A stretch of DNA of 64,000 nucleotides from a virus. Made by a program: the position numbers and the translations under genes. The stretch is taken from positions 1-64,000 of the IMG/VR virus record IMGVR_UViG_3300028584_000094; one strand, written 5' to 3'. The notes beneath the pieces are model-generated. The model did no database searches, was not told the DNA's origin, and saw only the letters and a list, made by a program, of their open reading frames with translations. Each line of letters begins with the position of its first letter. Positions within the stretch are counted from its first letter, which is position 1. Below are positions 6,874 to 23,804 of the stretch, piece after piece.

Positions 6874-7038
6874 ATGCAGAAAATAACCGACTATGTTCGA
6901 TCGGCAACCAAACGACAACTTGAGCGTGATGCTTCTGGACTAATAGTGTATCGGACATACGTTGAAAATATGGGTGTTCGTGATCGCATCAGATTTCTTT
7001 TCACTGGAAACGTTTTTCCGAAAGCTAAAAAGAAATGA
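6874..7038 (+). CDS. hypothetical protein
   Basis: ATG at 6874 lies right after the upstream stop. The track's 6838 start overlaps the HNH gene. Confidence 0.45.
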   Translation: MQKITDYVRSATKRQLERDASGLIVYRTYVENMGVRDRIRFLFTGNVFPKAKKK

Positions 7039-7631
7039 CCGACGAGGGAAAACTAATCTACGACTCCGACGAGGAAGAATGGTTTAGTTGGTGGGTTCAA
7101 GAGTTGGTAAATATTGGTGTGATTGTTTCGCACCAATACCACCCATCCTCATTCCCACTGACAACGAAGCATGTGATACCATACACCAAACGAACGCAAA
7201 TGAAAACCAAGTTAAAGGAGGAAACAAAAGACATGATCGTTCTGAACCCAATGGTCTATACTCCCGATTGGAGGATCAAGTTCAGCCCAATGTTCATGCT
7301 GAAAGGTTTTGCTAGCGGTCTCATCGCTGACATTGGAACGAAAACTGTTATCGGGAATGAGCCACTGATCGTGACCACCAACGGATGGTGGACTGTCGAT
7401 GTTAAAGGTGTTGCCACCAAATACGATGATGGTCGATACTTTACTGCGATGCAAAAGATCACCTACGACAAACATGGTATTTATGTACAGAGACTTGAAC
7501 TCTCTAACAAACTGTCTTCGATATTCGCACGCACATTCACACCACGGCTATTCTTGAAAACTCCAACAAAAAAGGTGCGTACCCTAAAGTACACACCTAT
7601 ATCGGCAGAAACGTGGGTCGGTCTTATTTGA
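7035..7631 (+). CDS. PD-(D/E)XK nuclease, T7 endonuclease I-like (candidate Holliday-junction resolvase)
   Basis: VYTPDWRI ... WWTVDVKG ... YDDGRYF parallels the YTPDF ... E-x-KG ... DDRK core of T7 gene 3 endonuclease. Confidence 0.45.
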   Translation: MTDEGKLIYDSDEEEWFSWWVQELVNIGVIVSHQYHPSSFPLTTKHVIPYTKRTQMKTKLKEETKDMIVLNPMVYTPDWRIKFSPMFMLKGFASGLIADIGTKTVIGNEPLIVTTNGWWTVDVKGVATKYDDGRYFTAMQKITYDKHGIYVQRLELSNKLSSIFARTFTPRLFLKTPTKKVRTLKYTPISAETWVGLI

Positions 7632-7636
7632 CCGAC
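7617..7636. terminator. hairpin at the convergent junction (candidate bidirectional terminator)
   Basis: GTCGGTC (7617-7623) - TTATTT - GACCGAC (7630-7636). Both stop codons of the convergent genes (TGA 7629-7631 on +, TAA 7624-7626 on -) lie inside it. Confidence 0.4.
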
Positions 7637-10600
7637 TTTACGTCTTCGTTTGCAAATCCAACCAACTCGATGATCCCTTGTATTGGAACCCCCGACACCA
7701 TGAACGCTCCTTCACCGATATTAGCGGCAATCTTTCTAAGTTCACCAACCGCTCCATCACCTTTCTGTTCGGCAGACGCGGATATTAAACCGATCGCGTC
7801 AAGCATTCCCATTGTTGCTTTCTCGGCTGAGACCACGATGTTCTTGCCGTATCCCGCAACGTCGTAGATTGGCGACGATGGTTTATAACCACTGTGTGCC
7901 CAGTCGATAATCATGTGCAATCCAACAACTGTTCCCAATGCTTCCGCAATGTATCGACGATGATCTCCAAGGATCTCGCCAAACTCTTTCGCATTGTCAT
8001 GACCTGCTTCACGTTTTAACATCTGTTTTAATTCGTCCGCGAGACCAAGCATCAAAGACACACCAATGGTTGACATCAACATCGCGGCAGTTGCTCTCGC
8101 AATTTTCTTCGAGTCTTTCGATTCGATCGCTTCTTTCAACTTCTTACCGTTTCGCATAATCTGAGCATACGTAGCAGATCGAGCACTGAAGAACATGGTG
8201 AACGGTTTTACGAACCCATGTTGCATTGCAAACGAGCGATCCTTAACATCGGATGTAGGCTGTGTCTGTCTCGTGATCCGTTCTGTCTTTTCAACAACGT
8301 AATCCCAGAACTCTTTCGACCCTTCCGTGAATTTCTTCGACGCTTCTCGTTTTGACGCTTCCCACACAGCCGTGATCGTAGCTGTGTCAGTCTGGGTGAT
8401 GAATGACATTGCAGACTCGATGAATGGCGTCTTTTGTCCACGCATAGCAAGTTCATTCACCGCCACGTCAATGTTCCCACGGAAACGAGACGCGAGGGTG
8501 TCACTATGTTGAGACACTTCATCGATCTTAGCCTGTAGACTTTTCGGGATATTTCCCCGAACGCCGTTGACAAGTATTCCCGGGAATTGTTTTGTCACCG
8601 ATGCAAACATTTTGAAGAACTCAATACCCATGTCCTCAAACTCTGGGGCAACAAGTGGGAGTGCCGCTAACTGTTTCATAGCTGTGAACACACGGTAACC
8701 AAGAACACTTGTCGCGAACTTGCCGTACATCTTGTTGAAACTGCGTTCCAATTTCGTGACCTTGTTTTCACCGGCTACCGATTTCTTCATCATGTTGAGA
8801 TTTTCATACAACGCCATGTTCCCATCTTTTGATGCGACCTCTTTGATTTTTATGAGAACCTGTTCAGCGTTCATATTAGCTTCGGCGAATCCCGCGTAAT
8901 GGGCAACCTTACGAGAGTGTCTCAACATCAGATCAAACGAATCCTCAAGGAGAATCGCTCGCTTGTTGTCTGTTCTCTCTTTTGTCATCCCCGGAGTGCC
9001 GTGGCGGTTTATCAACGCGTTTTGGAAATCGTTTAATCCAACCTGTTCATCGTAAATATCCCAAAGTGCAACATCGTTCGCAACGAGTGTATACGGAACG
9101 TAATTCTTTTCTTGTTTTAGTTCCTCGTCGTTGACAGTTTTAAATGTCTTCGATGTTTCATCCCACAACGCGCCATTGAACAATTTCAACATCTCATCGC
9201 GAATGGTCTTTTCGTCCGGTGTCAAACTCGCTTCGAGAATATCAAGTTGTGCGTCTGTCATTTTCACCGGCTGGACTTCTGGATCCAACGTGAAACCATC
9301 GCCCGTTAGTTTGTCCCTCGAGTGTTGATTCTTCGCATACGCTGACAGTGCCGCACGTTCAGATGGAACGAGTGATAACTTGGTAACTGTCCCATCTTGG
9401 TTCGTTACCTCTGTCGCGAACCGTGGCGCAATTCTGTTTTTCTTTTTGAACGCACGATCGAGTTGCCCAATTGTTTCAGACACTGGACCAGACAATTTAC
9501 TCGCGATCCCTTCGATATGTTTCATCGACTCATTCATGATTCTGTGTTCTGTGTCTTGACCTTTGCGGTAACCTTCCACGAACACGTCATAGATCAGATC
9601 GCCTTTCTTGAATCCATACCATTCAAGCATTGCTTCCGCGTTCATCGCCATAGCGGTTAAGAAATCACCCACTGCTTTCTTAACTGTTCCAAACGCGGTC
9701 TTGTTGAGTTTACCAGTGGCAACACCGTCGATGATTTCTTCCTTGAACGAACTCACGCGTGTTCTTTCTCGCCAGTTTTTTTCTACTTCGTTTTTTATTG
9801 ATCGTCCAGACAATTCACCGCGAAGAAATTTACCATCGTCACTCTTTTCTTTTTTCTCTGGTTTCACTGTCGTGGTGTCGTCATCCATCGAAACAAGTTT
9901 GAACTGTTTGTCGATCGGTTTCGGGTCAAACCCAGATTTAAACATCGCCGAAAATACTCGATCGGCAAGATGTGTCCGTTCAGCAGTGTCATTATACGTG
10001 ACACCTTTGAACTTGGCGATTAGTTTGTAGATCGCGTTCTTGATCTTGTTGTAAACACGTACAACCAATGAGTTCGCGTTTGCTCCTTTAAAATTACGGT
10101 TGATACTTCCATCGGTGTTGAATATCGGGGATTTCTCGATCAAGTGGGAAACCCACTCGTTGAACATTCTGTCCGCAGAAATATCACCATATTCTTTTCT
10201 GATCTGCTTGATCAATTTGTTATCGGTTTTCAAATCCTGCTCAAACATCGTTAAAAGATCCGCACCAATTGAAGGATACAAATCCATCAGTGTCGGTAGG
10301 AAAGCATGTCCGAGTTCGTGAGCGAGTGTAACGAGTGCTTCTGCATCATTGAGACGACTATTCAGACCGATCTCATAGGTCTTTGATGTGTCATCGAATG
10401 ATGTGTACCCATGAACGGATCCACCAAAATCACCAACATTCAAACGCACCGCGTTTCCAGTGAAGTTCAGAATAGACGCAATCGCTTTTTTCGGAACATT
10501 ACCAAGAACTGAACCACTCGATACTATCGGGGTGTCAATCTTGAACTGAATTATCGTGTAACCATTTTTCGCTCGGTTGAACCTATACTCAAGTTCCTTG

Positions 10601-13600
10601 GCTGGGTTCTTATCTGGACCAAACTTTGCGTCGAGATATGTAGCAACCGCGTTGAATTTATTACCACGTGATCTATCGAGAAGTTCCTGTATCCCATCCT
10701 TACTCATGAATCGTTTTGGAAGTTCAACAACACCAGTTTCGTCGAGGTTGTTTTTCACGTTTGACACAAAAGGCATGAGTGCTTTTTCAGAACCAACGAA
10801 AAGTTCTCCCGGTAACGCATCACCAACTTTAAACTTATTCGCTTTTATCAATTGAATTATTTCGGTCGGTACATGTTTAACAGGTGATAGTTCAGTGTCG
10901 TTGTCAAATGACGCATCGTCAATATCCTGTTCGAGTTCCATCGCAATGGCATCAATGTCTTCCGGCGCACCCGTTGAGCGTGATTCATCACCCGTGTCTA
11001 TGGTATCATCGCTGTCAACAACGTCAACTTCTCCGAACGTGGTTTCGATGTTGTCGTTTCTAAGTGACGCTTCGTTCATTAACTGTTCACCGGCGTTACC
11101 ACCATCGTCGGACCGGTAATCGAACGAATCGGTTTTTGTCATAACATCGTTAAGTCTGCTCATCTGCCATAGAGTCGTGTTTCGTAACTTATACCCTTTA
11201 TCGGTCAATTCCATGTACGACGTTGGTGATGGTACTTTCGTCGAGATTTTCTTTTCTCCTTGTGGGAGAGACTTGTTGTACTCTTTCGTGTCTTCAACAA
11301 ATTCAGTATTAAACGCTTCGAGTTCAGCTTCTGACATTGTAAAGTTAGCACCTGCCGAACTTGACGACGATGCTTCTTGTAAAAGTTTTCCCTTGTAGCT
11401 TTTCGGGTCAATACCAGTATCTCGAACGCCTTTAAAGGCGTTGACACCTTTCGACACTTCAGCGGGGATTACAACGTCGTTTGCCCCTGTTGATGTTATC
11501 GAATCGATGATTTTCTGCATTGAGCCAATATGGGTTCTCATGATGTCAGAATACCCGTTCTCCTCGACCATGTCTATTTTGGCGAGGAGATATGACACAA
11601 GTGCGTCAACGGTTTCTTTTCCTGTTTCAACCGTTTCAACGGACAGTGAGTCGATAATGGCATCCATGTTCACGGCGACATTGTGAACACCTGCTCCTAT
11701 CTTATTTTTGAGTGCATGTTCGGAAACTGTTGATTTCAGAGATTCCCACTCATCGTCGATAGGAAGAGAACCACTTGATGCGAGTTTCCGCATTCGAAAT
11801 TTTGCGGCAACTCTGCGAGCTAACTCATTACTCGCTTCTCGTTTTGCTCGTTCTTCCGCAGTCTCCGTTTCAACAGGTGGTAGATCTGTTTGTGATTTAG
11901 TTTCATCATTGACCTGCCTACCGTCAGATTGTTGTTCTTGGGTGTCGGTGGGTGGTTTCTTCTTTGGCGTGGTTGCAGTAGAGACCACTTGGTTTTCATC
12001 ACCTGTGTTGCTTTGAGATCGTCTCAGTTCTCGATAGTCAACGCCAGCATCAACCGTGACAGGGATCGTTACCCCAAAAGAGTCAAACAGGTCGGCAAGT
12101 TCCGTTATTTTTTCTCCATGACCGGTTCTACTTGTTTGTGGAGCATCATCTTTGATCTCGTTAATGAACATTACATGATGTAGAAGTTCGTGTGAGATCG
12201 CCGGGATAACCCCGTGGACCGTTGGAAACATATCTGGGTGAACGGAAATAAAAGATGGTGCTCCTATTTTACTCAAATACATCGCACCCCCATACCTCAA
12301 AACGGTTTCTCCTTCGGTGAGTCCTATTCCTACCTCCCCGACATCTGGTTCAACATCTGGAAACATCTTATCGAATGAAAACGATCCAGCCACTTTAGCT
12401 TTTATCGGTTTCAACCCTATTTGATACAACACGTAGTTCATCACCGAGACGATGTAGTTCGTCGCAAGTTCGAAGTTTTTGTAATCTATTTCTGAGTCTT
12501 CTGGGAGATCCGGTATCAATAGTAGTAAGCGTTCTATTTCTCTCACATAATCAGTGTCTATTTCCAACGGGTCAATATCGACCATTGCCCCTTCTATCGT
12601 GGCGTTGATCGTTTCTTCCATATCCAGCAACGTCGATTCGGTGAACTCTATTTGGGTGGGAGTTGTGTTTGCAACATCATAGCGTGTTCCAGTTTCTTCT
12701 TCGTTTCCGGGTTTTTTGTTTTCTTTCGCAGGACCGTCATTAGTGCCAGTTTTTCTTCGGTGTTCATTTGTTTGATTGGTTTCATTTTTAGTCTCTTCTT
12801 TTTTGGTTTTATGTTGACCGTTTTTGTCGATCGTTTCTGTTTTTACAGGTTCGACTTTAGTATCAGTTTTCGCAACTGGTTCTTTTACCGTTTTTGTTTT
12901 CACCTGCTCTTCGTTGAGTTTGTCGAACGCGGTAAGATCAATCTCTGGGATACCCATTTTTTTACGAACGAGATTTTCCCGGGAAAATTTAAGATCGCGA
13001 AGTTTTGCTTTCGCGGAATCATCCTGTGTCAGTTTCGACACGTTCGCGATGTCCTTATCAGCTTTTGCAATCATCTCATCGACATTTCCCGTTGGAACAT
13101 CGGTGATGACACCTTCCGTTTTGATCGCCGGATCGGTTGCTTTTTTGTATGACCGTTTGAACCCCATCTCTTTCAGATACATATCAACCAATCTGCGAGT
13201 ATCAGTTTTTGATGCTGATCGATCCTGCATCCGCTGAAGACCTTCATTCGCTTTTTTGATCACTTCACTATCTTCGGAAATTTTCTGATCGAAGAATTTA
13301 ATCTTATCCTGGTCCTCGGATTTAGATTTCATGTCTTTGTTGTCGATGATGCGTTGTTTCGCTTCATCGATGTTCTTATTCAACTGTGATTGAACTTTTC
13401 CCTTGCGACCTTCATACGTGTCGAGGTTATCCTTGCGCGTCTGGAGTTCAAGAGTGCGAGCTTCTTTCGCTTCTGCGTCTGTCAGTCGCGACATTTGACG
13501 TTTAGCGCGTTGATACGTGATCGCGTTCTTTTTAGCAACGAGAGAATCAATGTGTTCTTCCATTGCTAGTTTAGAATCATCATTCATCAGTTCTAACGAT

Positions 13601-16362
13601 TCAGCCTGTTCAATTTCAGCGTCGAGACCAATTTCAATCTGATTTAGTTTTGACTCCGGGAAACCATCATACGCATTTATCGTGGTTCTGTTTCCGTTCT
13701 TAAAAACAGGTTTAGGATTCCCACGGAGAGTTGCGAGTTCGTCATATCGAGTTTGTACTTTATTCAACTGACCATTGCGAATTAGTTCTGGAATTTCCTG
13801 CTCAATCGTGGCTATTCGTTCCTTCGCCTTATTCATCGATTCTACTTGTTTCTTCTCGTCTTCCGTAAGAGTGAACCCGATGTTGTACTGATCGGCTATT
13901 TCGAGCTTCAGATCATCGTCAAGACGCAACACAGGTTGTTCATCATTGTCAACTACGAACGCAGGTTCAACACCAAGATCTTTCAATGCTTTTGAAAGCG
14001 TTTTAATCGTCGTGTCTATTTGTGCCGAGTCAAACTTATCACCCTGTTTTTTGTTCTCCTCTTTCATCGTGCGGAGTGCTTGTAAATCATTGTCCAAAGT
14101 GATCGCAGTGTTCACCACTGACGATTCATTAATTTTATTGGCAACAGCGAACGCAGACGCTTTTTCCATCACCGAAACTTTTCGTTCTGCGATAAGTTCA
14201 TTACCAACAAACCGAGATAGTTGGTCGACGTACTTCTGTTTCTTATCGACATTTGTTCTGAGATCCTCGAACGTGATGTCGTCAACACCGGCAGTCTTCA
14301 TCGCGTTGATCGCTTTTACAGCTGTATCAACTTCGGTACGAGCACGGGTAAGATTGTCATTACGGTTAAAGGAGGAATCTAAGCCACGTTCCTGCCCCCA
14401 CTTTAAGAATGACTTCTCTTCTGGTGTAACTTCATCTTCGAGGATACCCATGACATCCTCACCACGTTTCATCGCGGGATTTACAACACCTGCTCGATAC
14501 GCGATGTCTTCAAACTTAGCTCGCATTGCTGAAGCTGTTGGTACTTCATCACCGAAAAGATTTGGGAACTCTGTTTTTGCTCCAAGAGCGATAGCGTCAT
14601 TCTGCATTGCCGTCGTTGATTCTGGTGTAGGTGTTTTTCCGCGCTCTTCGCCCGGTGTAGTTGGTGATTTCCCACGGGAAAGACCATGGACAACACCGAA
14701 ACCACCACCAACGATACCACCAAGAGTACCACCGATAAGCATTTCCTGTGCTACTTCTTCCGCAGTTTTCGTGTAATGTTTTTGTTCTGGATCGTAATGA
14801 GTTGACATCAAATGCGACACGAGAGGGATTGTTGCTTCTTCCGCAAATTCTCCAGTTGCCGATGCAACGCCGGAACGAACCATTTGGTTTCTGAAGGCTT
14901 TCCCCATAACTTTATCGATCATCTGACCACCAGACATTTCATCGGCGAGCAAAAGAGACATTGCACCAGAGACTAATCCAACAACCCCCGCTTGTTTCTG
15001 AGCTTGGTCATGGGTGAAACCATTTTTGATGGCTTCGTCGTAGGCACTCGAACCTTCCATGGCTCCAGATGTCACTCCGACCATTCCCATCTGAGACGCT
15101 TTCGTCCCAAGTGCAATAAGACGTGCAGTTGTTTCAGCTGACATTGCATACGCTTTCGCAGATCCTTGGATACCACGTGTGATCAATGGATTTACAACAC
15201 CTCCGGTAACCGCCGAAGCCCCGAACATTGCGGCTAATTGTGGAACCTGTTCGATCACCATTTGTCCGAGAAGTGAAGCATTGTCGAGACTCGTTGGTAA
15301 TAGTGCGAGAACCCCATCATCCTGCAATTTTTTGGATAAATTGTCGTCTATGGCTATTTCTTCTTGCGCTCTTCCGAGTCGTTGCGAAAGATTATACGCA
15401 GGAGTACTTAAAACTCCCCCGGGATTATCGATAGCACGTACAAGATCGGGAGCCATTTTCGCAACACCCATAACACCACGTTCGAGTGCTCTGACAGCAC
15501 CCGTTCCAAATGATTTGTCTCGTTGGTTGATGTCACGTTTCGATGGAGTGGCAATATCAAGATTCGACGATTCCATTTCACCGGTGTTACCACCAAGTGA
15601 CGCGTATTTTTCACGTGTTTTATTAACATGTTTTTTTATCTCATCTGCTTTTTTCTGTGCGATCTCAGCATCGGTTCCTTTAACACCTTCACCACGCAAA
15701 TTTGCGATTAGATTTTTATTCATTGATACTGCTTCGGTAAGATAGTTTTCCCAACTACCCCCCGATTTCTTCGCCCGTTCGATCGCTTTGTCAATAACGT
15801 AATCACCTGCGTTATAAGATGCCGCCGCTTTTGCACGGTCACCACCATATTTCGAATCAGCGTGTTTTGCCCACCGCTCGTAAGCAATGCGAGCAGATTC
15901 TGGATTGAGAATGACTTGGTCGATCTTTTCCTTTTCCATGGCTTGACCGCCGGGATACCACTGTTTGATGAAATCACGTTCCATTTGGTATTGACCTTTA
16001 ACACCCGTTGGTGAAACCGCTGAGTTGTCACCGCCGGATTCAACACCCACTATCGTTTTTCTGAAATTAACATCACGGAATAATGGAACTGGTTTCATTT
16101 CACTTGGAGCAGGTTTCGCGATTTCTTGTGTTGGGTCTACGGGAGAAATAGCAGTTGGTCGTTTCATACGCTGTTCGAACGATTCTTGTTCTTCATCAAC
16201 GGGGGCGACCGCTTTTGGTTTTGATGCGACACTTTTTTGAGAAGCAGAAGAAGCCGGTTTTTTGCCGACTTCTTGGGTGTTACCCGCTCCTTTTATCTGT
16301 TCAGTGAACAAGTTTTTTAAATCCTGTTTTTTCTGTTCTTCTTTTGGAAGCGGGTAGATCAT
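7624..16362 (-). CDS. giant virion internal/ejection polyvalent protein (N-terminal lytic transglycosylase, two HExxH zincin motifs, hydrophobic segments)
   Basis: Uninterrupted 2912 codons. SLT-like VGVESGGDNSAVSPTGVKGQYQM...AASYNAGDY (about 15770-16050). HELLHH at 12175-12192 and AHELGHAF (HELGH at 10306-10320). Gly/Ala-rich hydrophobic stretches and a long coiled-coil-like K/E-rich centre. It is the last gene of the virion operon. Confidence 0.8.
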   Translation of the reverse strand: MIYPLPKEEQKKQDLKNLFTEQIKGAGNTQEVGKKPASSASQKSVASKPKAVAPVDEEQESFEQRMKRPTAISPVDPTQEIAKPAPSEMKPVPLFRDVNFRKTIVGVESGGDNSAVSPTGVKGQYQMERDFIKQWYPGGQAMEKEKIDQVILNPESARIAYERWAKHADSKYGGDRAKAAASYNAGDYVIDKAIERAKKSGGSWENYLTEAVSMNKNLIANLRGEGVKGTDAEIAQKKADEIKKHVNKTREKYASLGGNTGEMESSNLDIATPSKRDINQRDKSFGTGAVRALERGVMGVAKMAPDLVRAIDNPGGVLSTPAYNLSQRLGRAQEEIAIDDNLSKKLQDDGVLALLPTSLDNASLLGQMVIEQVPQLAAMFGASAVTGGVVNPLITRGIQGSAKAYAMSAETTARLIALGTKASQMGMVGVTSGAMEGSSAYDEAIKNGFTHDQAQKQAGVVGLVSGAMSLLLADEMSGGQMIDKVMGKAFRNQMVRSGVASATGEFAEEATIPLVSHLMSTHYDPEQKHYTKTAEEVAQEMLIGGTLGGIVGGGFGVVHGLSRGKSPTTPGEERGKTPTPESTTAMQNDAIALGAKTEFPNLFGDEVPTASAMRAKFEDIAYRAGVVNPAMKRGEDVMGILEDEVTPEEKSFLKWGQERGLDSSFNRNDNLTRARTEVDTAVKAINAMKTAGVDDITFEDLRTNVDKKQKYVDQLSRFVGNELIAERKVSVMEKASAFAVANKINESSVVNTAITLDNDLQALRTMKEENKKQGDKFDSAQIDTTIKTLSKALKDLGVEPAFVVDNDEQPVLRLDDDLKLEIADQYNIGFTLTEDEKKQVESMNKAKERIATIEQEIPELIRNGQLNKVQTRYDELATLRGNPKPVFKNGNRTTINAYDGFPESKLNQIEIGLDAEIEQAESLELMNDDSKLAMEEHIDSLVAKKNAITYQRAKRQMSRLTDAEAKEARTLELQTRKDNLDTYEGRKGKVQSQLNKNIDEAKQRIIDNKDMKSKSEDQDKIKFFDQKISEDSEVIKKANEGLQRMQDRSASKTDTRRLVDMYLKEMGFKRSYKKATDPAIKTEGVITDVPTGNVDEMIAKADKDIANVSKLTQDDSAKAKLRDLKFSRENLVRKKMGIPEIDLTAFDKLNEEQVKTKTVKEPVAKTDTKVEPVKTETIDKNGQHKTKKEETKNETNQTNEHRRKTGTNDGPAKENKKPGNEEETGTRYDVANTTPTQIEFTESTLLDMEETINATIEGAMVDIDPLEIDTDYVREIERLLLLIPDLPEDSEIDYKNFELATNYIVSVMNYVLYQIGLKPIKAKVAGSFSFDKMFPDVEPDVGEVGIGLTEGETVLRYGGAMYLSKIGAPSFISVHPDMFPTVHGVIPAISHELLHHVMFINEIKDDAPQTSRTGHGEKITELADLFDSFGVTIPVTVDAGVDYRELRRSQSNTGDENQVVSTATTPKKKPPTDTQEQQSDGRQVNDETKSQTDLPPVETETAEERAKREASNELARRVAAKFRMRKLASSGSLPIDDEWESLKSTVSEHALKNKIGAGVHNVAVNMDAIIDSLSVETVETGKETVDALVSYLLAKIDMVEENGYSDIMRTHIGSMQKIIDSITSTGANDVVIPAEVSKGVNAFKGVRDTGIDPKSYKGKLLQEASSSSSAGANFTMSEAELEAFNTEFVEDTKEYNKSLPQGEKKISTKVPSPTSYMELTDKGYKLRNTTLWQMSRLNDVMTKTDSFDYRSDDGGNAGEQLMNEASLRNDNIETTFGEVDVVDSDDTIDTGDESRSTGAPEDIDAIAMELEQDIDDASFDNDTELSPVKHVPTEIIQLIKANKFKVGDALPGELFVGSEKALMPFVSNVKNNLDETGVVELPKRFMSKDGIQELLDRSRGNKFNAVATYLDAKFGPDKNPAKELEYRFNRAKNGYTIIQFKIDTPIVSSGSVLGNVPKKAIASILNFTGNAVRLNVGDFGGSVHGYTSFDDTSKTYEIGLNSRLNDAEALVTLAHELGHAFLPTLMDLYPSIGADLLTMFEQDLKTDNKLIKQIRKEYGDISADRMFNEWVSHLIEKSPIFNTDGSINRNFKGANANSLVVRVYNKIKNAIYKLIAKFKGVTYNDTAERTHLADRVFSAMFKSGFDPKPIDKQFKLVSMDDDTTTVKPEKKEKSDDGKFLRGELSGRSIKNEVEKNWRERTRVSSFKEEIIDGVATGKLNKTAFGTVKKAVGDFLTAMAMNAEAMLEWYGFKKGDLIYDVFVEGYRKGQDTEHRIMNESMKHIEGIASKLSGPVSETIGQLDRAFKKKNRIAPRFATEVTNQDGTVTKLSLVPSERAALSAYAKNQHSRDKLTGDGFTLDPEVQPVKMTDAQLDILEASLTPDEKTIRDEMLKLFNGALWDETSKTFKTVNDEELKQEKNYVPYTLVANDVALWDIYDEQVGLNDFQNALINRHGTPGMTKERTDNKRAILLEDSFDLMLRHSRKVAHYAGFAEANMNAEQVLIKIKEVASKDGNMALYENLNMMKKSVAGENKVTKLERSFNKMYGKFATSVLGYRVFTAMKQLAALPLVAPEFEDMGIEFFKMFASVTKQFPGILVNGVRGNIPKSLQAKIDEVSQHSDTLASRFRGNIDVAVNELAMRGQKTPFIESAMSFITQTDTATITAVWEASKREASKKFTEGSKEFWDYVVEKTERITRQTQPTSDVKDRSFAMQHGFVKPFTMFFSARSATYAQIMRNGKKLKEAIESKDSKKIARATAAMLMSTIGVSLMLGLADELKQMLKREAGHDNAKEFGEILGDHRRYIAEALGTVVGLHMIIDWAHSGYKPSSPIYDVAGYGKNIVVSAEKATMGMLDAIGLISASAEQKGDGAVGELRKIAANIGEGAFMVSGVPIQGIIELVGFANEDVKSVK

Positions 16363-16370
16363 AATTTTCT

Positions 16371-18803
16371 CTATTCGTTATAATTAAATTGTCTCGACGG
16401 CGTTGCTTTATCTGCTCCGGTGTATTGGGACGCATCATACGCAGGTCTATCATTTAACGATTTGAACTTATCAAACGCCCCTGTGTTGTCGAACACCTGT
16501 GGGTATTTGTGTCTAAGTTCGTTACCTGTCGTCGTGTCATAACCCTTCGAAGTCAAATATATGTTATATAGTTTCGTTAAGTCAGTTGACCCGTCCGGTT
16601 TCTTATACAACTGATATTCAGCATTTGAGGCGTTCTCTTTCAAGAACGAATCAAAACCTTCCGCAAGACGACTCGCATCCTGTTTCTCGACATCAGTAGT
16701 CTTTCTACTTTTCTCAAGTTCTTCGGAAGTCATCTGTTTTCCGACATTGTTGAATGCTCTCGACCCCGGAGTATTCGACCCTGCTTCACGCTTGAGGTCG
16801 GCGGGTGCTGACTCTGGTGATTTGAAGGAATACGTCAGAGGAACTCCCTGTGTATTAGTAAGTGGTAAACCGTCTGGACCCATCTTGACCGCGACACCTG
16901 CTTCTCGACCACCCATTGGAGCATACCAAACCATTGTACTACCAGTTTCAGAACCAAGTGCGGACAATGCTCGATCTGGATCTTTCGCGAATGTGGTCTG
17001 CAACGTGTTCTTCATGGTGTCGGAAAGACCAAGAGAAATCTCTCTCTGTTGGCTATCTTCTGCCGCTTCACTCTGACCATAGCTAATCGTTTCATCAGAA
17101 GGCGCAATCCCTCTATTCACCATCGCAACTCGTTCGGTGAAAAGAGATTTCGACATCTGTTGTCTAAGAACACCTTCCATTTTGACCTGTTCCTCAAGCA
17201 GTTTGTTTTCAGCTTGTATCGACGCGACGGTCATCCCTTCTGGAAGAGGTACCTTCTCTTTCCCGGTTGCCGATTTTAATAGGTCGGTATTTCTTGATAT
17301 TTTATCCGTCAATCTTTTGATAGTTGCGTCGCTATCTTCCTGCAAAATGTTGTAGGTCTCTTTGTATTTGTCGCTACCACCACTTCCACCGGAGCCTCCA
17401 TCTGGAGCGTAATTAACAGGGCGATACAGTGCAATGGTTGTCTCAACCGCTGTCTTGAAATCGTCTTTGATGGTGTCCATCACCTGTTTGCGTTCCGTCT
17501 CTGGGATCTGTGATAAATACGGCTCCATCAATGTTTGGACTTGAGAGGGCACACCAGATTTTTCCATGAGAGCGTGTTGTAGTTCATCCGCAACCGTTGT
17601 GTTTAGATACCCACCGACGAACATGCCATCTTGGATCGCATACTTCGTTAGGTATTCTCTAGCAAACGCGGTGGATAGATCAACGGCTACTTCCATAGTC
17701 TTCTGTTTAACTGCGCCAGTGTACTTTTGGCTAACTTCTGCTTGAGTAGCAACGACTCTACGATCACCGTCTATTTTGTCGGTAGTCGCCATTGTGTTCA
17801 TCTCAAGTGGCGACATACCAAGTTCGAAGGTTGGGGTCATGAGGTACACAGAATTTCTACCCTTGATCTCAACGGGCTTAACGGACTGTTTCACCTTTTT
17901 CGTGAACTCGTCAACTTTTTGAGTTGAATAGTATTCCTTTTTCAACTGATCAACACCTTCGAATTTATACTTCTCATGAAATTGACCATCATCATAATTG
18001 ATATTTGCGTCAGATACCAAGTATAAAAACTGAGCATTCTTTTCAATGAGATTTCCGTTTACGTCTTTCAGCACGGGTTCAAACAGTGATTGCATTGCTT
18101 GACCATACTCGTTGAAGAAATCTTCGCCGCTTCGAGCGGATCTTACCTTTTGGCTCGCTTTTTCTTTTCCAAGATCTGGAGCGGACGCATTACTCATGAT
18201 GATCTCATCGCCGGGGATAGCGTCTGGATTAACGGACGTTATCTTATTCGTGTACACAACTTTGCCGTCGGGTGTTCGTTCGAACATACCATCGGCAATA
18301 CCTTTTTCGATTTGTTCGTTTATCACCGTTGGTTTTTTTGCTATTTCCACGGCAACATCGTCAATGCTTCTTCCTCTACGATCGCGCGAATCGAGTTTAG
18401 GCAAATACGATTCCATGTATTTCTGGGCGACCTGTGTTTTTAGATTGTCTTTCCCAGTTTCTGGGTCAACACCAAAATCATTAACATCCTTCCCAACGAG
18501 ACCGTAATGTTTCGCGGCATCGAGGAGTTTTTTGTCACCATCGAGATCATCCCCCCAAATAGTGTGTTTTTTCAAAAACTCGTCGCGGAAACCTTTGTCT
18601 CGGTTGATACGTTCGAAATACTTCTTCGACTCTTCAACGAGTTTCTCGGAAGACCCGTGAGTGTTTTTCGCTTGGCGAACCTGTTGAACATAGTCACCAA
18701 CGAGAGAAACTGCCGCACCTGCTTTTTCAGCCGCGTCAGCGAAGAAATCGTAATCCGGTTTATAGTCTGCTGGGTTATACCCGTAGAATCCACTTCCACT
18801 CAT
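16371..18803 (-). CDS. internal virion protein (hypothetical)
   Basis: 810-aa ORF between the small internal proteins and the giant protein, with a GGSGGSGGS linker. The function is inferred from position only. Confidence 0.6.
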   Translation of the reverse strand: MSGSGFYGYNPADYKPDYDFFADAAEKAGAAVSLVGDYVQQVRQAKNTHGSSEKLVEESKKYFERINRDKGFRDEFLKKHTIWGDDLDGDKKLLDAAKHYGLVGKDVNDFGVDPETGKDNLKTQVAQKYMESYLPKLDSRDRRGRSIDDVAVEIAKKPTVINEQIEKGIADGMFERTPDGKVVYTNKITSVNPDAIPGDEIIMSNASAPDLGKEKASQKVRSARSGEDFFNEYGQAMQSLFEPVLKDVNGNLIEKNAQFLYLVSDANINYDDGQFHEKYKFEGVDQLKKEYYSTQKVDEFTKKVKQSVKPVEIKGRNSVYLMTPTFELGMSPLEMNTMATTDKIDGDRRVVATQAEVSQKYTGAVKQKTMEVAVDLSTAFAREYLTKYAIQDGMFVGGYLNTTVADELQHALMEKSGVPSQVQTLMEPYLSQIPETERKQVMDTIKDDFKTAVETTIALYRPVNYAPDGGSGGSGGSDKYKETYNILQEDSDATIKRLTDKISRNTDLLKSATGKEKVPLPEGMTVASIQAENKLLEEQVKMEGVLRQQMSKSLFTERVAMVNRGIAPSDETISYGQSEAAEDSQQREISLGLSDTMKNTLQTTFAKDPDRALSALGSETGSTMVWYAPMGGREAGVAVKMGPDGLPLTNTQGVPLTYSFKSPESAPADLKREAGSNTPGSRAFNNVGKQMTSEELEKSRKTTDVEKQDASRLAEGFDSFLKENASNAEYQLYKKPDGSTDLTKLYNIYLTSKGYDTTTGNELRHKYPQVFDNTGAFDKFKSLNDRPAYDASQYTGADKATPSRQFNYNE

Positions 18804-19180
18804 TGTCTCAACCTTTCGATGGATTTAACATTGCGAGCAAGCGACCCACTGAGTCCCTTGATCTGCGAGTCCTGTGCGTTATTCATTACCGATCTGTTCG
18901 TATCATCGAGAGCAGTTTTCATATCAACCTGTCTTCCCTGTTCTTCGATATTGTCCTCTTCGCGTTTCATTTCAAGACCACGAATAGCAGTTCTCTGATT
19001 TTTGATCTCCTGCCCCTGCTTGAGAAGATCCGAATTTCTGACATCACCACGTTTGATCTGTGCCAGTTCAGCACCTTCCTCACGCGCTTTTTTGTTTCCA
19101 CCCGCCCCCACAATACCCGTCGCGAGTTGACCAGTGACACTCACAACTCCTGTGATCGCCGCAATCGTTGTTGCTACCAT
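18800..19180 (-). CDS. small virion/internal protein with N-terminal Gly/Ala-rich hydrophobic segment
   Basis: MVATTIAAITGVVSVTGQLATGIVGAGGNKKAREEG...; paralogous in layout to the upstream 177-aa gene; ATGA overlap with the downstream gene. Confidence 0.55.
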   Translation of the reverse strand: MVATTIAAITGVVSVTGQLATGIVGAGGNKKAREEGAELAQIKRGDVRNSDLLKQGQEIKNQRTAIRGLEMKREEDNIEEQGRQVDMKTALDDTNRSVMNNAQDSQIKGLSGSLARNVKSIERLRQ

Positions 19181-19713
19181 TACTGACTCCCTTCCTGTTT
19201 CTTACTTCCAAGGAGAGACAGCATGATGTCTTTCATCCCTTGGCTCTGATTTGCCATTTCGCCGATTCTTTGTATCGACTCGTTTGTCTGATCATACTTT
19301 TTCTGACGATTCTTCAGCTCACGCAGAAACGAATCAAACTTCAATACGTTTTTACGGGCAAGATGATCGATGTCTTGACCTTCGCGCTGAATACCGACTT
19401 TTCGAGTATTTAACGTGTCCCACTCTTTTTCGGAGCGAAGTTCATCACCGCGTACTTGATCGGCGAGTTTTCTCGCTTCTTCGCGGTCTCTACGGTTACC
19501 CGCAAGACCTGCAATACCAATTCCAATATCAGCCGCCGCACCAACCGCTTCAGCACCCGCGGCAACCATCATCGACGTGTCGGTTCCAACGCGAGACGAA
19601 CTATCCCATGGACTCGTCTCATTCACTTTGGGTGTGGCTGTCGGGGTCATCATCCCTGTTCTGGTCGTTCCCCTGTTTGTGGGGATGCTTCCCCGAGTAT
19701 TTTGAGTATTCAT
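19180..19713 (-). CDS. small virion/internal protein with Gly/Ala-rich hydrophobic segment
   Basis: MMVAAGAEAVGAAADIGIGIAGLAGNRRDREEARKLADQVRGD mirrors GAGGNKKAREEGAELAQIKRGD in the 126-aa neighbour. Confidence 0.55.
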   Translation of the reverse strand: MNTQNTRGSIPTNRGTTRTGMMTPTATPKVNETSPWDSSSRVGTDTSMMVAAGAEAVGAAADIGIGIAGLAGNRRDREEARKLADQVRGDELRSEKEWDTLNTRKVGIQREGQDIDHLARKNVLKFDSFLRELKNRQKKYDQTNESIQRIGEMANQSQGMKDIMLSLLGSKKQEGSQ

Positions 19714-19723
19714 CTAATTCTCC

Positions 19724-22345
19724 TTATGACCAAGTGTTCTGCCCAGCATTGTATACATACTTTTCACCCGTTACAACATCAACAAACGTATATGAATACG
19801 CCCATGGTTTACCACCAGATTTAACAGTGTCAACGCACCGTAGAAGATCACCGGATGAGTCTTTAAACGTCGATCCTTTTCCAATCCCTTTAAGCCCAAT
19901 CGGGTAATCCTCACGATCACCAGTTCTCGTATCGGTGTTTCTTTCGTAGTTTGTTGCCGGTATACTTTCAAGCAACTGACCTCTAACCGACGCATTCATT
20001 GTTTTCCATGTGGTGTCGTCGAGGAACGTCGGAGATTCTTTCACTTTATCCTTCAACGTGGAAATTGCACCTGCATCGGTCAAGTTCAACTGAGGAGTTG
20101 CGAGTAATTTGTTCCAACCTGCGCCATCAAGTGTGGTGTAATCGATCGCAGTTTTTTTACCCGCCGCATCAACTGTGTATGGTTTACCATCGTAAACGAA
20201 GAAGTCTCCTTCTCCTTTTCCTTTTGGTGTTCCATTGGATGCTTCGTAATCGGCTTTTGCTTCTGCGAACCCTTTGAAGTTTTCGGGTTTATTAAATTTC
20301 GCACGAGCGATTCCTTCACCCGATGATGCTATGTCGTCAGTGGATAGATTGTTCTTGAATGCTTGACTCGCGGAAATTTCTGCTCCGGTTGCTTTATCAT
20401 AGAACACAGTTGACCACCCACCATCTTCATTGACTTTGAACCCTACATTGTAAATAGGAGTTTCGTCAGGTCTCGATGGCGTATACTTACTAGTGAACAT
20501 TGACCCGAGCGTGGTTGCTTTCGCGACATCGTCACCCGTTACAGCGTCGGATACAGTGTCAGCAATATAAACACCATCTTTATTCGTCACCTTAACCGAT
20601 GTGCCATCACCGTTTGAAACAACAATCTGTCCCGTTCCCGTCGTACCCGTGGTGTTTGTTGTTCCAGTGGATTTACCACTAGGATCATAAACGACATTCC
20701 CTTGACCATCTTTAAGCACGATATTATCACCAACGATCACAGCGGTTACACCACCCGTAATTCCATAGGTCTGCAACATGTTCAACGCTTTTTCAGCGGT
20801 GTTGAAATCGGCTTGAGAAATCTTACCATCACCAAGTTGACGATACAGTTCATTCATCGAGTCGTTGTATGAAACTTCGTTCGCGGTCATGACAAATTCT
20901 TTTGCTTTCCCGTTCACGTATCCTTTCATGCTTTCGGTGATGCTCGCGTCAACTGTTCCATTTTGCCATGCGTTGATGAACTCAGCTTGGTCTTTATATT
21001 GACCAACTTCACCACCGTTAGCATACCAGTATGCAGACAGTGCGTTCAGTTCCATCCCTTTATCCTTGAACTCGAGACCACCGTTTTTAGTTGCTTCACC
21101 CTGTTTGAAGAAATTGAGTTCTTTCCCGCCAGTTGATTTGTCATCCATGAACTGATCAGCACCAAACGCGGAAATGTATTCACCCATGTTCGCAAGTGAA
21201 TCATCGCGTTTTGAATCAAACTCCATCAGACGAAGATCGGTGAAGTCAAGAGATTTCCACCACGTTTCAAGTTCTGCTTTCGACGCCTCGTCGGTTCCAA
21301 AACCATTGATCCCCGCGAATAGTTCTTGCGCCTTGGTGACACCCTCTTCTGATGTGAGATCAAGATATTTAAGAGACTCCGTGAAATTCTCCATGTTCTG
21401 CGCCACGGTAACGCTTCTGCGTTGGGCGATTTGGGAATCAATGTCTTTCATTTGTGCTTCGAGTTGTTCCTTGCTGAGATCGTGCTGTGCGAGGAATTGT
21501 TCATCCTGCAACATGAGTTTCGCCCAGTTAAGATCTTGATCAGACTTCCCGAACTCTTCAGTCAGCATCCGGTCGATAACCTCAAGACCGAACCCACGTT
21601 GTTGAAGTTCGAGTGCGCGTTCTTTATAAGCGGCATCGATGTTCATACCCTGCTGTTCGAGAAGTTTGGCTTTCTCAAACCACTTGTCCTCAAGTTGCAT
21701 CTTCTCTTCAGCCTGTTCCATCGAGCGACCAGATAACGCCATCGATGCGAGATCCTTTGTCGCCACTGCCTGACGCTCCGCACGCTGAACAGCCAATTGA
21801 CCAAGGAGATCGGTTTGAGCCGCTTCCTGTGTTCTGTTCGCCATTTGTTGTTGCATGAGTATCTGACTCTTTGACATTCCAAGCTGTGCCGCTTGTTGCA
21901 TCATCGCCTGTTTGTCTGCTCCTTGGGTGGCTTTCTGGTCCATTGATGCAGTGCGGGAAATTTGATCCATCGCCTTATCAGTTCCATGAGCCGCAGAACC
22001 CTGTAGATTGAGTGCATCAAAGAAAGCAGATTTGGTCTGAGATCCCTGTTTCGTTGGATCGTACCGATCAAAGTTATTCATGGCATCTGCACGACCGAAA
22101 TCACCCGGTTTAACATTGTTCGACGGATTTGATTGACCCCAAACAGTTTCTAGTTTTTTGTTAATAGGGTCGAGGTTCATCCCCGATTGTGTGTATTTGC
22201 CAGATGTGTAACCTGCGTAGTCAAACCCTGCGACATTATTGTCTTTTTTATTCGTATCTGTTCCATCTGGGAGCACTGGTGTTGTTGCTCCCCCTGTCTG
22301 CGTTCCCGGCTTCCACGGATTCACGCCCGGATTGTAAATTGCCAT
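19724..22345 (-). CDS. virion structural/internal protein (hypothetical)
   Basis: 873-aa ORF with a Q-rich coiled-coil-like N-terminal third and a T/G-rich linker TGTTNTTGTTGTG. Confidence 0.6.
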   Translation of the reverse strand: MAIYNPGVNPWKPGTQTGGATTPVLPDGTDTNKKDNNVAGFDYAGYTSGKYTQSGMNLDPINKKLETVWGQSNPSNNVKPGDFGRADAMNNFDRYDPTKQGSQTKSAFFDALNLQGSAAHGTDKAMDQISRTASMDQKATQGADKQAMMQQAAQLGMSKSQILMQQQMANRTQEAAQTDLLGQLAVQRAERQAVATKDLASMALSGRSMEQAEEKMQLEDKWFEKAKLLEQQGMNIDAAYKERALELQQRGFGLEVIDRMLTEEFGKSDQDLNWAKLMLQDEQFLAQHDLSKEQLEAQMKDIDSQIAQRRSVTVAQNMENFTESLKYLDLTSEEGVTKAQELFAGINGFGTDEASKAELETWWKSLDFTDLRLMEFDSKRDDSLANMGEYISAFGADQFMDDKSTGGKELNFFKQGEATKNGGLEFKDKGMELNALSAYWYANGGEVGQYKDQAEFINAWQNGTVDASITESMKGYVNGKAKEFVMTANEVSYNDSMNELYRQLGDGKISQADFNTAEKALNMLQTYGITGGVTAVIVGDNIVLKDGQGNVVYDPSGKSTGTTNTTGTTGTGQIVVSNGDGTSVKVTNKDGVYIADTVSDAVTGDDVAKATTLGSMFTSKYTPSRPDETPIYNVGFKVNEDGGWSTVFYDKATGAEISASQAFKNNLSTDDIASSGEGIARAKFNKPENFKGFAEAKADYEASNGTPKGKGEGDFFVYDGKPYTVDAAGKKTAIDYTTLDGAGWNKLLATPQLNLTDAGAISTLKDKVKESPTFLDDTTWKTMNASVRGQLLESIPATNYERNTDTRTGDREDYPIGLKGIGKGSTFKDSSGDLLRCVDTVKSGGKPWAYSYTFVDVVTGEKYVYNAGQNTWS

Positions 22346-22347
22346 TA

Positions 22348-22530
22348 TTATCTCCGAACCGAACGCTCAACGCGTTTCATTAAGTTTTGCATTTGCAGAG
22401 AAATGTTCGAAACCTCTTCATCAAGTCTACGACTCAGCCGAGCATTCTCGTTTTTTCTCGCAGTGTTTTCAGACTCAAGATAGTTTATTTTTGTCTCAAG
22501 TCGTGCTATTCTATCACCCATTTCACTCAT
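22348..22530 (-). CDS. hypothetical coiled-coil protein
   Basis: 60-aa ORF with heptad-like IARLETKINYLESENTARKNENARLSRRLDEE, tightly packed between its neighbours. Confidence 0.45.
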   Translation of the reverse strand: MSEMGDRIARLETKINYLESENTARKNENARLSRRLDEEVSNISLQMQNLMKRVERSVRR

Positions 22531-23804
22531 TCGATATACCCCGGTAGAAATTTTTCACCTCTGTTAAGGAACACATCATGAATATAATTCTCGAAATGTT
22601 TTTCGTTTGTCACTGTCGACATAAAACATCGAAGATCAAACACGATAAATCCAACTGGTAATGTCACCACCGACACAGATGTAATATCAACCAAATGAAG
22701 ATCCCAATTGGTCGTTGTAATGTTTCCAACGAACGGATCCGGTAGAGCAGTTAAAACCCCATCAAGAAGAATATTACTATCAACGTCGTGTTTTCTCCAC
22801 AACACCATCAACGTGTCGTCGGCGGTGTCGATGTCGAGTGGTGTTGAAAGGAGGAAAGCAGAATTTTCATACAGATCTGCGCCGTTCGTTGATGAACCAG
22901 TGATCAGCAATGTGTCCCCGGTTGATCTATTTGAATCATATCCGGGACGAGTAAACCACTTTGTTGCGGTTGACATGTACAACTGGAACGATCGATCCTC
23001 AACGATAACATCATTTGCGTATCGTGCGGTGTCGGACACTTTACAAGTTGTTTCGATCCCTTCAACTCTAAAACCAGAATGACTAAACTCGAGACCGATT
23101 TGGAAGAAGTCATACATCGCCTTATGCGAGAACAGTACTTCTGAGTCTTGGTTTATATCTGCGATCCGTTCCGTTTGAACCGGTCTACCTTCATTGATTA
23201 AATGAGCATCAACACTGATTCGGTCCGTTGGCTGGTAATCACCGTCGATCAATCGAATGTCAGAATAAGTCTCTTCATGTTTTATTTTGAATTTACGGGA
23301 AGACCCACGCATTTCCGGTGTTATGATCAATGCTCGAATTGGGTAACCATCCGGATCGTCCGGGTGACCAACCATGTCTCGGTAAAGATCATGATCAACA
23401 CCAAACGATTTCTTCTGATTCATTACGAATGGTAAGCCAGTGTCGAAGTCGAAACATATCTTAATACGATCATCACCAACATTAAGAACCGGCATCGCGG
23501 CTCTCGTCTCTGGAAACAACCAATTATCACCAGAAAATTCCACCCATCCCGAACCAGTTGTGTCGCTGTTACCATAAATAAGACATTGACGATCACGATT
23601 AACACCGTAGCTAAACAGTGTTTCCGCAAAACCAAACACGTTGATGTAATCTGTTTTGGTCACTTGTCGCGTGTTGCCAAACTCATCCCACACCTTCAGA
23701 GTGACATCATAAAACCCAGGTCTTCTGTAGATGTGGAAAGGGGACGGTAAAGCAGATTCTTCACCGTCCCCAAAATCCCACAGCCACCGTACTATTGACG
23801 GCAT
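22527..23804 (-). CDS. PKD-domain virion protein
   Basis: N-terminal WLWDFGDGEESALPSPFHIYRRPGFYDVTLKVWDEFGN is a textbook PKD signature (WDFGDG...Y...G.Y.V.L.V.D). Confidence 0.65.
   Translation of the reverse strand: MPSIVRWLWDFGDGEESALPSPFHIYRRPGFYDVTLKVWDEFGNTRQVTKTDYINVFGFAETLFSYGVNRDRQCLIYGNSDTTGSGWVEFSGDNWLFPETRAAMPVLNVGDDRIKICFDFDTGLPFVMNQKKSFGVDHDLYRDMVGHPDDPDGYPIRALIITPEMRGSSRKFKIKHEETYSDIRLIDGDYQPTDRISVDAHLINEGRPVQTERIADINQDSEVLFSHKAMYDFFQIGLEFSHSGFRVEGIETTCKVSDTARYANDVIVEDRSFQLYMSTATKWFTRPGYDSNRSTGDTLLITGSSTNGADLYENSAFLLSTPLDIDTADDTLMVLWRKHDVDSNILLDGVLTALPDPFVGNITTTNWDLHLVDITSVSVVTLPVGFIVFDLRCFMSTVTNEKHFENYIHDVFLNRGEKFLPGYIE

Follow-up and report, generated by a model that had tools for sequence, protein, structure and literature searches.

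The 64,000-nucleotide stretch analysed here (positions 1 to 64,000 of the IMG/VR virus record IMGVR_UViG_3300028584_000094, hereafter the window) carries on its minus strand a single ATG-initiated open reading frame (ORF) of 2,912 amino acids (aa) at positions 7624-16362, as established by ORF listing and translation of the window. This giant gene is the last of the structural operon and its product contains no cysteine (Cys). It closes a co-oriented run of genes that opens with small and large terminase-like genes and continues with genes for the portal (phrog_156, E 1e-32) and the major head protein (phrog_334). A hairpin follows the stop codon and convergent genes lie beyond it, with no distal-tail or baseplate genes after the giant ORF. 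An 8.7-kb single ORF at the end of the virion operon, as claimed in a preliminary description made from the letters of the window, is therefore confirmed. With a probability that we place at about 0.7, the gene would encode a virion-packaged internal (ejection) protein of polyvalent build, from an uncultured phage with a structural operon of the short-tailed type (T7/N4 layout). The features of the locus are as follows.

7624-16362, minus strand: giant ORF, 2,912 aa, no Cys, end of the structural operon.
15763-16059, minus strand: SLT domain, aa 102-200, with the Glu108 codon at 16039-16041, GQYQM at 15982-15996 and SYNAGDY at 15799-15819.
14668-15570, minus strand: conserved hydrophobic module rich in Gly and Ala, aa 265-565; three helices of moderate hydrophobicity; candidate for membrane insertion.
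12736-14667, minus strand: variable centre rich in K/E, aa 566-1209; a low-complexity T/K/E/P linker forms its end.
11983-12735, minus strand: orphan region with HELLH, aa 1210-1460, flanked by low-complexity linkers, with HELLH at 12178-12192 and GHGEKITELADLF downstream at 12085-12123; putative second zincin.
10555-11982, minus strand: variable region, aa 1461-1936, no recognisable domain by phmmer, Pfam tiles or PHROGs.
9913-10554, minus strand: credible zincin-like metallopeptidase, aa 1937-2150, with HELGH at 10306-10320, the Glu2069 codon at 10156-10158 and the HGYTSFDD strand at 10390-10413.
7627-9855, minus strand: C-terminal module, aa 2170-2912, conserved and family-defining; mostly helical, with hydrophobic helices towards its end.
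7573-7598, minus strand: terminator-like hairpin, an 11-bp stem followed by TTTTTGTTGG (a T-run), 25 nt past the stop codon of the giant gene.
16371-22345, minus strand: upstream Cys-poor genes, in gene order of 873, 177, 126 and 810 aa; candidate partners in ejection.

At their stop codons, the giant gene and a convergent plus-strand ORF (7035-7631) overlap by 8 nt. The hairpin (7598-7573) sits within the 3' end of this plus-strand ORF, whose product is also free of Cys.

Family-1 lytic transglycosylases share three motifs, namely the catalytic glutamate in E-S, G-x-x-Q and A/S-Y-N-x-G. All three occur at the N-terminus of the giant protein (VGVE108SGG, aa 105-111; GQYQM, aa 123-127; SYNAG, aa 182-186), and the Pfam SLT profile (PF01464) matches aa 102-200 with 26 bits in the whole protein and 30.1 bits in a tile, above its cut-off of 21.3. 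The N-terminal domain is thus, by sequence, a lytic transglycosylase, and the catalytic Glu codon that had been assigned at 16039-16041 within VGVESGG is indeed that of Glu108. In addition, the profile phrog_342, annotated as 'internal virion protein with endolysin domain', matches aa 102-280 (E 3.4e-6); with 1,235 positions this profile is close in length to T7 gp16 (1,318 aa). Together with the T7/N4-like order of the surrounding genes, this match upholds the assignment to the gp16-type internal virion proteins.

This order is seen in the genes directly upstream. The 873-, 177-, 126- and 810-aa genes resemble N4 gp53-52-51 and T7 gp13-14-15 in size and order: the N4 operon ends with gp53 (885 aa), gp52 (150 aa), gp51 (644 aa) and gp50 (3,500 aa), the latter in the same terminal position as the giant gene, and T7 gp13 to gp16 measure 138, 196, 747 and 1,318 aa, compared to 177, 126, 810 and 2,912 aa in the window. 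The arrangement is kept among relatives. Two contigs (L046 and L047; 42-68 kb) that encode the related proteins P0002 and P0003 carry the same cassette of a PKD protein, proteins of approximately 800, 145, 130 and 700 aa, and a giant gene. Their operons end at the giant gene (followed in L047 by one extra gene of 135 aa) with oppositely oriented genes beyond, which in L047 include a primase-helicase, as in the window.

Amino acid composition sets the same proteins apart. At the 0.7% Cys frequency of the other window proteins, the complete lack of Cys in 2,912 residues has a probability of ~1e-9. Cys is also missing from the 177-, 126- and 810-aa upstream genes, and the 873-aa gene further upstream has one. 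The five-gene cassettes of L046 (4439-17410) and L047 (4382-17530) are entirely free of Cys, as are 10 of the 11 relatives found by phmmer, and Cys makes up 0.04% of 59,816 residues in the metagenomic relatives. The same holds for known ejected proteins, with zero Cys in T7 gp15 and gp16 and in N4 gp50, gp51 and gp52. No discussion of Cys absence in ejected proteins was found in a review of ejection proteins (PMC8954989) or by literature search. Total absence of Cys may be a general signature of proteins that are ejected through the tail channel. Gene order, annotation and composition, by analogy to T7 and N4, make it most likely that the giant protein is packaged in the virion and injected along with the DNA.

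Hydrophobic segments, which an ejection protein could use to enter membranes, are found by hydropathy both near the N-terminus, where they are Gly/Ala-rich (aa 376-394, 458-476 and 540-559), and at the C-terminus (aa 2754-2778, 2842-2860 and 2885-2905), as had been noticed in the preliminary description. The N-terminal segments belong to the aa 265-565 module that is kept in P0002-P0004 (BLASTP 2e-53 to 4e-14; phmmer 3e-29 to 5e-13). The centre that follows (aa 566-1209) gave no family match in Pfam tiles or PHROGs and is conserved no further than aa 957, and this in P0002 only. Lysine and glutamate account for 18-30% of residues across aa 700-1200, so the centre is K/E-rich as described earlier; its coiled-coil-like character was not borne out by a crude heptad test, which gave no clear segment.

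The family to which the giant protein belongs is defined by its C-terminal module. An exhaustive phmmer search with aa 1290-2489 against 1.84 billion cluster representatives recovered 11 proteins, and a degenerate-pattern scan with a five-sequence alignment added ORFs of 1,293-2,315 aa at 42 metagenome loci and 2 IMG/VR loci, in which the module lies at the C-terminus; the module is accordingly seen in 11 representative proteins and 42 metagenome loci. The closest relatives, P0002-P0004 (2,469-2,509 aa), share aa 265-565, the HELGH region (~1940-2150) and the C-terminal module (~2170-2837) with the giant protein. More distant relatives share the C-terminal module alone, and two of them, P0006 and P0010 (679 and 758 aa), consist of little else. 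The enzyme at the N-terminus is swapped within the family: P0005 has an SLT domain like the giant protein, P0004 a VgrG3-type lysozyme, and P0002, P0003 and some of the loci have another domain in common. The family therefore consists of a conserved scaffold with variable N-terminal heads and centres.

Outside this set, relatives are scarce. The same five-sequence pattern scan yielded no locus in 185,579 prokaryotic (GTDB) genomes, and a scan of IMG/VR with the single protein likewise none. Word-indexed protein searches with the whole protein, aa 2151-2911 or the alignment returned the query itself or nothing. Among 50,697 phage records, megablast with the whole ORF found no DNA match and tblastn one weak protein match (MT837155, aa 2534-2772), while P0006 as query led to two additional unannotated faecal contigs. 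NCBIfam gave nothing for the giant protein, nothing significant came from searching PDB sequences with the whole protein, the HELLH tile or three family profiles, and neither the conserved Gly-rich module nor the ~700-aa C-terminal module corresponds to a Pfam family. In PHROGs, the C-terminal module is matched by phrog_28077 (1,524 positions, unknown function; E 1e-10), and phrog_9880 (2,231 positions) matches weakly at two places, in the order found in the giant protein.

In an AlphaFold model of aa 1937-2912 (11 sequences; mean predicted local distance difference test, pLDDT, of 65) the C-terminal module reaches a pLDDT of 70-93 over much of its length. It has no relative in the PDB by sequence or fold. 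Against BFVD, the C-terminal model gave 71 Foldseek matches at E<=1e-3 (best 5e-17, TM ~0.45), and the best 50 of these are mostly second or third chunks, i.e. C-terminal parts, of very long phage proteins. Their labels include 'PolyVal ADP-ribosyltransferase', 'Phage MuF C-terminal domain-containing', 'Large polyvalent protein-associated domain' and 'Nuclease', as well as 'Putative internal (Core) protein' in Pseudomonas phage Ab05 and 'Structural protein' in phages KPP25 and Gundel_1. This likeness to polyvalent proteins is structural only and derives from a model with a pLDDT of 65. These fold matches to annotated polyvalent and core proteins, the modular relatives, and the lack of Cys shared with T7 gp15/16 and N4 gp50-52 all favour the earlier proposal of a polyvalent injected protein.

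Directly before the C-terminal module lies the HELGH region. The motif occupies aa 2015-2019, and its core is exactly at the positions 10306-10320 previously assigned to LAHELGHAFL, a string that as a whole spans 10297-10326. The Pfam profile Peptidase_M78 (PF06114) scores 21.0 bits on this region in the whole protein and 24.2 bits in a 224-aa tile (cut-off 22). This match is limited to profile positions 22-55 of 123, which cover a strand and the HExxH helix, and the relatives score 17.9-18.9 bits; phrog_87 ('metallo-protease') likewise matches the strand and the HExxH helix only. The domain is kept in P0002-P0005 and P0011. Its motif reads HELGH in P0001-P0004 and P0011 and HELWGH in P0005, a six-residue HExxxH variant being described in the metallopeptidases of polyvalent proteins (PMC5512222), and it is degenerate in P0007 (EEVVGH), where the first His is lost. 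About 50 residues past HELGH, Glu2069 (in NEW) is a Glu in six of the seven rows of the domain alignment and aligns with NEF of N4.

The predicted topology of this region (in model numbering, helix 22-31, strands 36-41, 49-54 and 59-65, HExxH helix 70-83; pLDDT 62-82), with a helix, three strands, the HExxH helix and a later helix (127-140) that carries Glu2069, fits a zincin, although in a model of moderate confidence. Foldseek searches of the PDB with the aa 1937-2912 model found no significant match for the model as a whole; short local matches included the IrrE-like protease CapP (7t5t) and SPRTN (6mdw; probability 0.82). Profile comparison by hhalign points to another relative: the HELGH domain aligns to the metallopeptidase of N4 gp50 (E 4e-4 over 31 columns with N4 alone; E 7e-4 over 113 columns with nine N4-like sequences), and both share G(Y/W)T.FDD, HEL.HA, NE(W/F) and VY..IK..I. 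This metallopeptidase was identified in gp50 by Iyer et al. (PMC5512222). The conserved motif and downstream Glu, the modelled topology and the N4-type alignment thus agree with a zincin-like module, and the HELGH domain is a credible metallopeptidase of the polyvalent or N4 virion RNA polymerase type.

The label ImmA/IrrE-like, previously given to HELGH, is marginal, with an M78 match that covers positions 22-55 only; the metallopeptidase of the N4 virion RNA polymerase and of other polyvalent proteins is the better relative. With ImmA/IrrE (M78) proteins and with CapP of the cyclic oligonucleotide-based antiphage signalling system (CBASS), the domain has in common the strand and HExxH helix, the 24.2-bit tile match and the local fold match. 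It differs from these in its presumed third ligand, which lies ~50 residues downstream after inserted helices, and in that no partner repressor or helix-turn-helix context accompanies it. In the related protein P0007 (2,332 aa), a GGDEF diguanylate-cyclase domain is found at aa 776-872 and the degenerate EEVVGH at approximately aa 1095. The altered motif suggests that the peptidase activity was lost and the fold kept in this protein.

Several observations weigh against the interpretation as a packaged, T7/N4-type ejection protein with a peptidase. Its presence in the virion is deduced from annotation, synteny and composition. No sequence similarity to T7 gp16 extends beyond the SLT domain, and there the phmmer match is itself non-significant (E 0.019). 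N4 gp50 shows no similarity by phmmer, its hhalign likeness is confined to the peptidase domain, and its C-terminal region has no hhalign match to the C-terminal module. The neighbouring genes are without detectable homology to T7 or N4 ejection proteins, which makes the analogy to both phages one of position and composition (sizes, order and Cys content). The hydrophobic segments peak at Kyte-Doolittle values of 1.4-1.7, borderline for transmembrane helices. Support for the peptidase is moderate, with an hhalign probability of 26-35%, a pLDDT of 62-82 and PDB fold matches that are local and non-significant overall. Finally, an HExxH string of any kind occurs in only 2 of 23 full-length metagenomic relatives and P0007 is without the first His. 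The peptidase would therefore be dispensable for the core function of the family, i.e. accessory rather than at the core of the machine.

The second HExxH string raises the question of how many peptidases the protein contains. HELLH occupies aa 1391-1395; its core lies within the range of 12175-12192 earlier assigned to ISHELLHHVMF, which is slightly short for the full string (12166-12198). As strings, the two different zincin motifs of the preliminary description are real. Per residue shuffle of the giant protein 0.03 HExxH strings are expected and two are seen, and both fit a stricter zincin signature of PROSITE type (AISHELLHHV in the case of HELLH), for which 0.0014 matches are expected per shuffle and which occurred twice in none of 20,000 shuffles. 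Beyond the strings, a zincin domain around HELLH is putative. When tiles were searched with profiles, as had been proposed as a check, the HELGH tile found M78 (24.2 bits) and phrog_87 and the HELLH tile nothing.

It could thus be that the protein has a single peptidase and that HELLH stands in a non-peptidase or catalytically inert lineage-specific insert, a reading to which we give somewhat less than an even chance. In its favour, the exhaustive phmmer search against 1.84 billion cluster representatives found no homologue of aa 1290-1936, and the HELLH region, which the nearest relatives P0002-P0004 lack, remained without a match at E<=10 in Pfam, PHROGs, NCBIfam and PDB alike. Its hhalign match to the HELGH family comprises 21 columns round the motif only (E 0.055), and a single-sequence AlphaFold model of aa 1210-1460 is unusable at a pLDDT of 33. 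Against a single peptidase speak the fit of HELLH to the stricter signature and its location in a discrete unit of ~250 aa bounded by T/K/E/P-rich low-complexity linkers. Candidate third ligands (H1415, E1417 and E1421) follow at 19-25 residues past the motif, and even the low-confidence model gives the zincin order of elements (a helix, a non-helical stretch of ~60 aa, the motif helix and a further helix). Moreover, the domain is documented in multiple copies in approximately 8% of the polyvalent proteins that bear a metallopeptidase (PMC5512222). Since no relative matches aa 1290-1936, the HELLH region is, as far as sequence can tell, a lineage-specific orphan insert. A SprT/Spartan-like assignment from HELLH and GHG was discarded; the SPRTN match is short and local and stems from the aa 1937-2912 model, which does not include the HELLH region.

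For the giant protein as a virion-packaged ejection protein, by analogy the counterpart of T7 gp16 and in its position that of N4 gp50, the following course of events can be proposed. The C-terminal module, possibly jointly with the peptidase domain, would direct the protein into the capsid core, as could be expected from N4 gp50, in which a C-terminal region of 1,400 aa that contains the metallopeptidase domain is required for encapsidation (PMC5512222). At infection, the Cys-free polypeptide would leave through the portal-tail channel in a partly unfolded state with the 810-, 126- and 177-aa proteins. The SLT domain would then cut the peptidoglycan locally, and the Gly-rich and C-terminal hydrophobic helices could enter membranes and help to build a conduit for the DNA. 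The HELGH peptidase may act on the giant protein itself, in its maturation or in the release of variable cargo, which is our preferred role for it at about even odds. The HELLH segment, a putative peptidase, would represent lineage-specific cargo.

Alternatively, one or both peptidase modules could be injected effectors that cleave host defence or regulatory proteins and do not act on the giant protein, as was suggested in the preliminary description. We consider this the less likely of the two roles. The weak likeness to ImmA/IrrE-type (M78) and CapP-type proteases would agree with it, as would the proposal that polyvalent proteins deliver effectors (PMC5512222). The peptidase is present in part of the family only, which would be expected of an accessory weapon, and the genome of a relative carries anti-defence-like genes (a Sequestin match and a weak Tad2-like match). 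The M78 match, however, is restricted to the strand and HExxH helix. The HELGH domain is fixed directly before the C-terminal module in this clade, as it is in N4 gp50, where the C-terminal region that includes it is needed for encapsidation and the protein is packaged unprocessed (PMC5512222). From this position a role on the protein itself (processing or packaging) is favoured at least as much as that of an effector.

The anti-defence-like genes are those of contig L047 (17532-19754), in which the giant gene encoding P0003 precedes a gene for a small protein weakly matched by Peptidase_M15_3, and next come convergent genes with the Sequestin and the weak Tad2-like match; these are possible anti-defence genes.

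A more far-reaching version of the ejection-protein reading is conceivable and appears doubtful to us. The giant protein and its relatives would be a polymerase-less sister lineage of the N4 virion RNA polymerase, with a shared delivery chassis (Cys-free, ejected and with an N4-type metallopeptidase) and phage-specific cargo; the orphan 250-aa HELLH module would be a new zincin family and an injected anti-host effector, and the absence of Cys would predict ejection from sequence alone.

Tape measure proteins often contain SLT or peptidase domains and hydrophobic Gly-rich stretches. The ORF could be imagined as such a protein of a long-tailed phage, given that it is very long and largely helical, carries an SLT domain and Gly/Ala-rich hydrophobic segments, and has some BFVD matches from entries labelled Myoviridae or Siphoviridae sp. 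We consider this very improbable. The giant ORF closes its operon; behind it come a terminator-like hairpin and convergent genes, not distal-tail or baseplate genes, and no tail tube, sheath or tail chaperone families were detected among the window proteins. A tape measure this long (2,912 aa) would call for a tail of ~430 nm, stand-alone proteins of ~700 aa (P0006 and P0010) also contain the C-terminal module, and among annotated matches the best are to internal core or polyvalent proteins, not to tape measures. A divergent virion RNA polymerase of the N4 gp50 type, which the operon-end position, giant size, zero Cys and homologous metallopeptidase domain might suggest, is hardly credible at all, as phmmer found no similarity to the polymerase region of gp50, no tile has a Pfam or PDB polymerase match, and the centre is K/E-rich, of low complexity and not conserved among relatives.

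As an ejection protein of polyvalent build, the giant protein can be compared to several known systems. Polyvalent proteins were defined by Iyer, Burroughs, Anand, de Souza and Aravind (2017, J Bacteriol; PMC5512222), who report the zincin-like metallopeptidase as the commonest domain of the phage representatives and list fusions of lysozyme or transglycosylase with metallopeptidase among them. The giant protein is like these in being a giant late-gene product with unrelated activities in one chain, here SLT and metallopeptidase, from an operon with portal and major head protein, and in the match of its C-terminal model to C-terminal chunks of PolyVal ADP-ribosyltransferase (ART), MuF-C and large polyvalent protein-associated domain (LPD) proteins (BFVD, best 5e-17). 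It differs in that no LPD, MuF, ART or nuclease domain is detectable with Pfam and that its gene stands at the end of a tail/ejection cassette and not beside the portal gene. The giant protein belongs to this already described class and is not a new kind of system; existing concepts are extended by it and not changed.

N4 gp50 (3,500 aa) is similar in that its gene closes the structural operon behind genes of 885, 150 and 644 aa, in its lack of Cys and in a metallopeptidase that is a homologue of the HELGH domain (E 4e-4 to 7e-4 by hhalign). In contrast, its RNA polymerase domain has no equivalent in the giant protein and the SLT domain none in gp50, the C-terminal modules are not detectably related, and the remaining structural proteins show no similarity. 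T7 gp16 (internal virion protein D) shares the N-terminal lytic transglycosylase, the position after genes of small and ~750-aa internal proteins, the absence of Cys (with gp15) and the predicted hydrophobic helices. The giant protein is 2.2 times larger, has the added peptidase domain or domains and a different C-terminal module, and shows no likeness beyond SLT; the tail fibre gene follows gp16 in T7, whereas the operon ends here. The earlier statement that T7 gp16 is less than half the size and has no peptidase motifs is right as to size (1,318 aa), while one bare HExxH (HERLH, aa 559) does occur in gp16, outside the zincin signature. A lytic transglycosylase and a metallopeptidase in one chain are also known from gp28 of the cyanopodophage A4, a structurally shown pre-ejectosome protein (PMC12002296). 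Compared by its description, A4 gp28 is unlike the giant protein in its size of ~1,058 aa and in its peptidase, an M23 peptidoglycan hydrolase and not an HExxH zincin (PMC12002296).

An uncultured family, with 11 cluster representatives and 42 metagenome loci, is thereby added to the phage ejection and polyvalent proteins, one that has no close relative in IMG/VR, none in ~185,000 prokaryotic genomes and three weak partial matches in ~50,000 phage genomes. In one protein it joins the T7 gp16 type, with its N-terminal transglycosylase, to the N4 gp50 type, with a metallopeptidase before the C-terminal module. With a delivery scaffold that stays fixed and enzymatic heads and centres that can be exchanged, the family offers a place to seek new injected effectors, and zero Cys is a cheap feature that could help to flag ejected proteins in unannotated phage genomes. 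Of particular interest are this bridge between gp16-type head and N4-type peptidase, the family-wide scaffold, the orphan HELLH insert and the Cys-free signature.

A further relative of the N4 region was encountered in the 248-kb Enterobacter phage SonariX (PQ898399.1, 235599-246470; locus L057), where the C-terminal region of a 'hypothetical protein' resembles the metallopeptidase and C-terminal region of N4 gp50 (E 1e-37 at 21% identity) and has an HEMLH string. This match places what by similarity is an N4-type delivery region outside Schitoviridae.

The phage lineage as a whole is, to judge by its proteins, very distant from catalogued phages. No Pfam, PHROGs or NCBIfam match was obtained for the minus-strand products of 1,448 aa (26290-30636), 870 aa (30884-33496), 873 aa (19724-22345) and 810 aa (16371-18803), and the 64-kb window contains no tRNA genes. 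The sole ORF of at least 400 aa outside the structural operon encodes a primase-helicase (19-1755), and for this reason the 64 kb show no phage RNA or DNA polymerase of the usual size. Homologues of N4 structural genes were sought among the neighbours with phmmer, and none was found except for a 174-aa ORF in the structural operon (24966-25490, minus strand) with similarity to N4 gp61, an N-acetylmuramidase (E 6e-6 in a database of 12 proteins). By this similarity it is probably an endolysin, i.e. a second wall hydrolase beside the SLT domain. The 425-aa protein with an N-terminal PKD domain (22527-23804, minus strand) occupies the same position in the contigs of the relatives at 33-38% identity, and is a likely tail or receptor-binding component of the clade.

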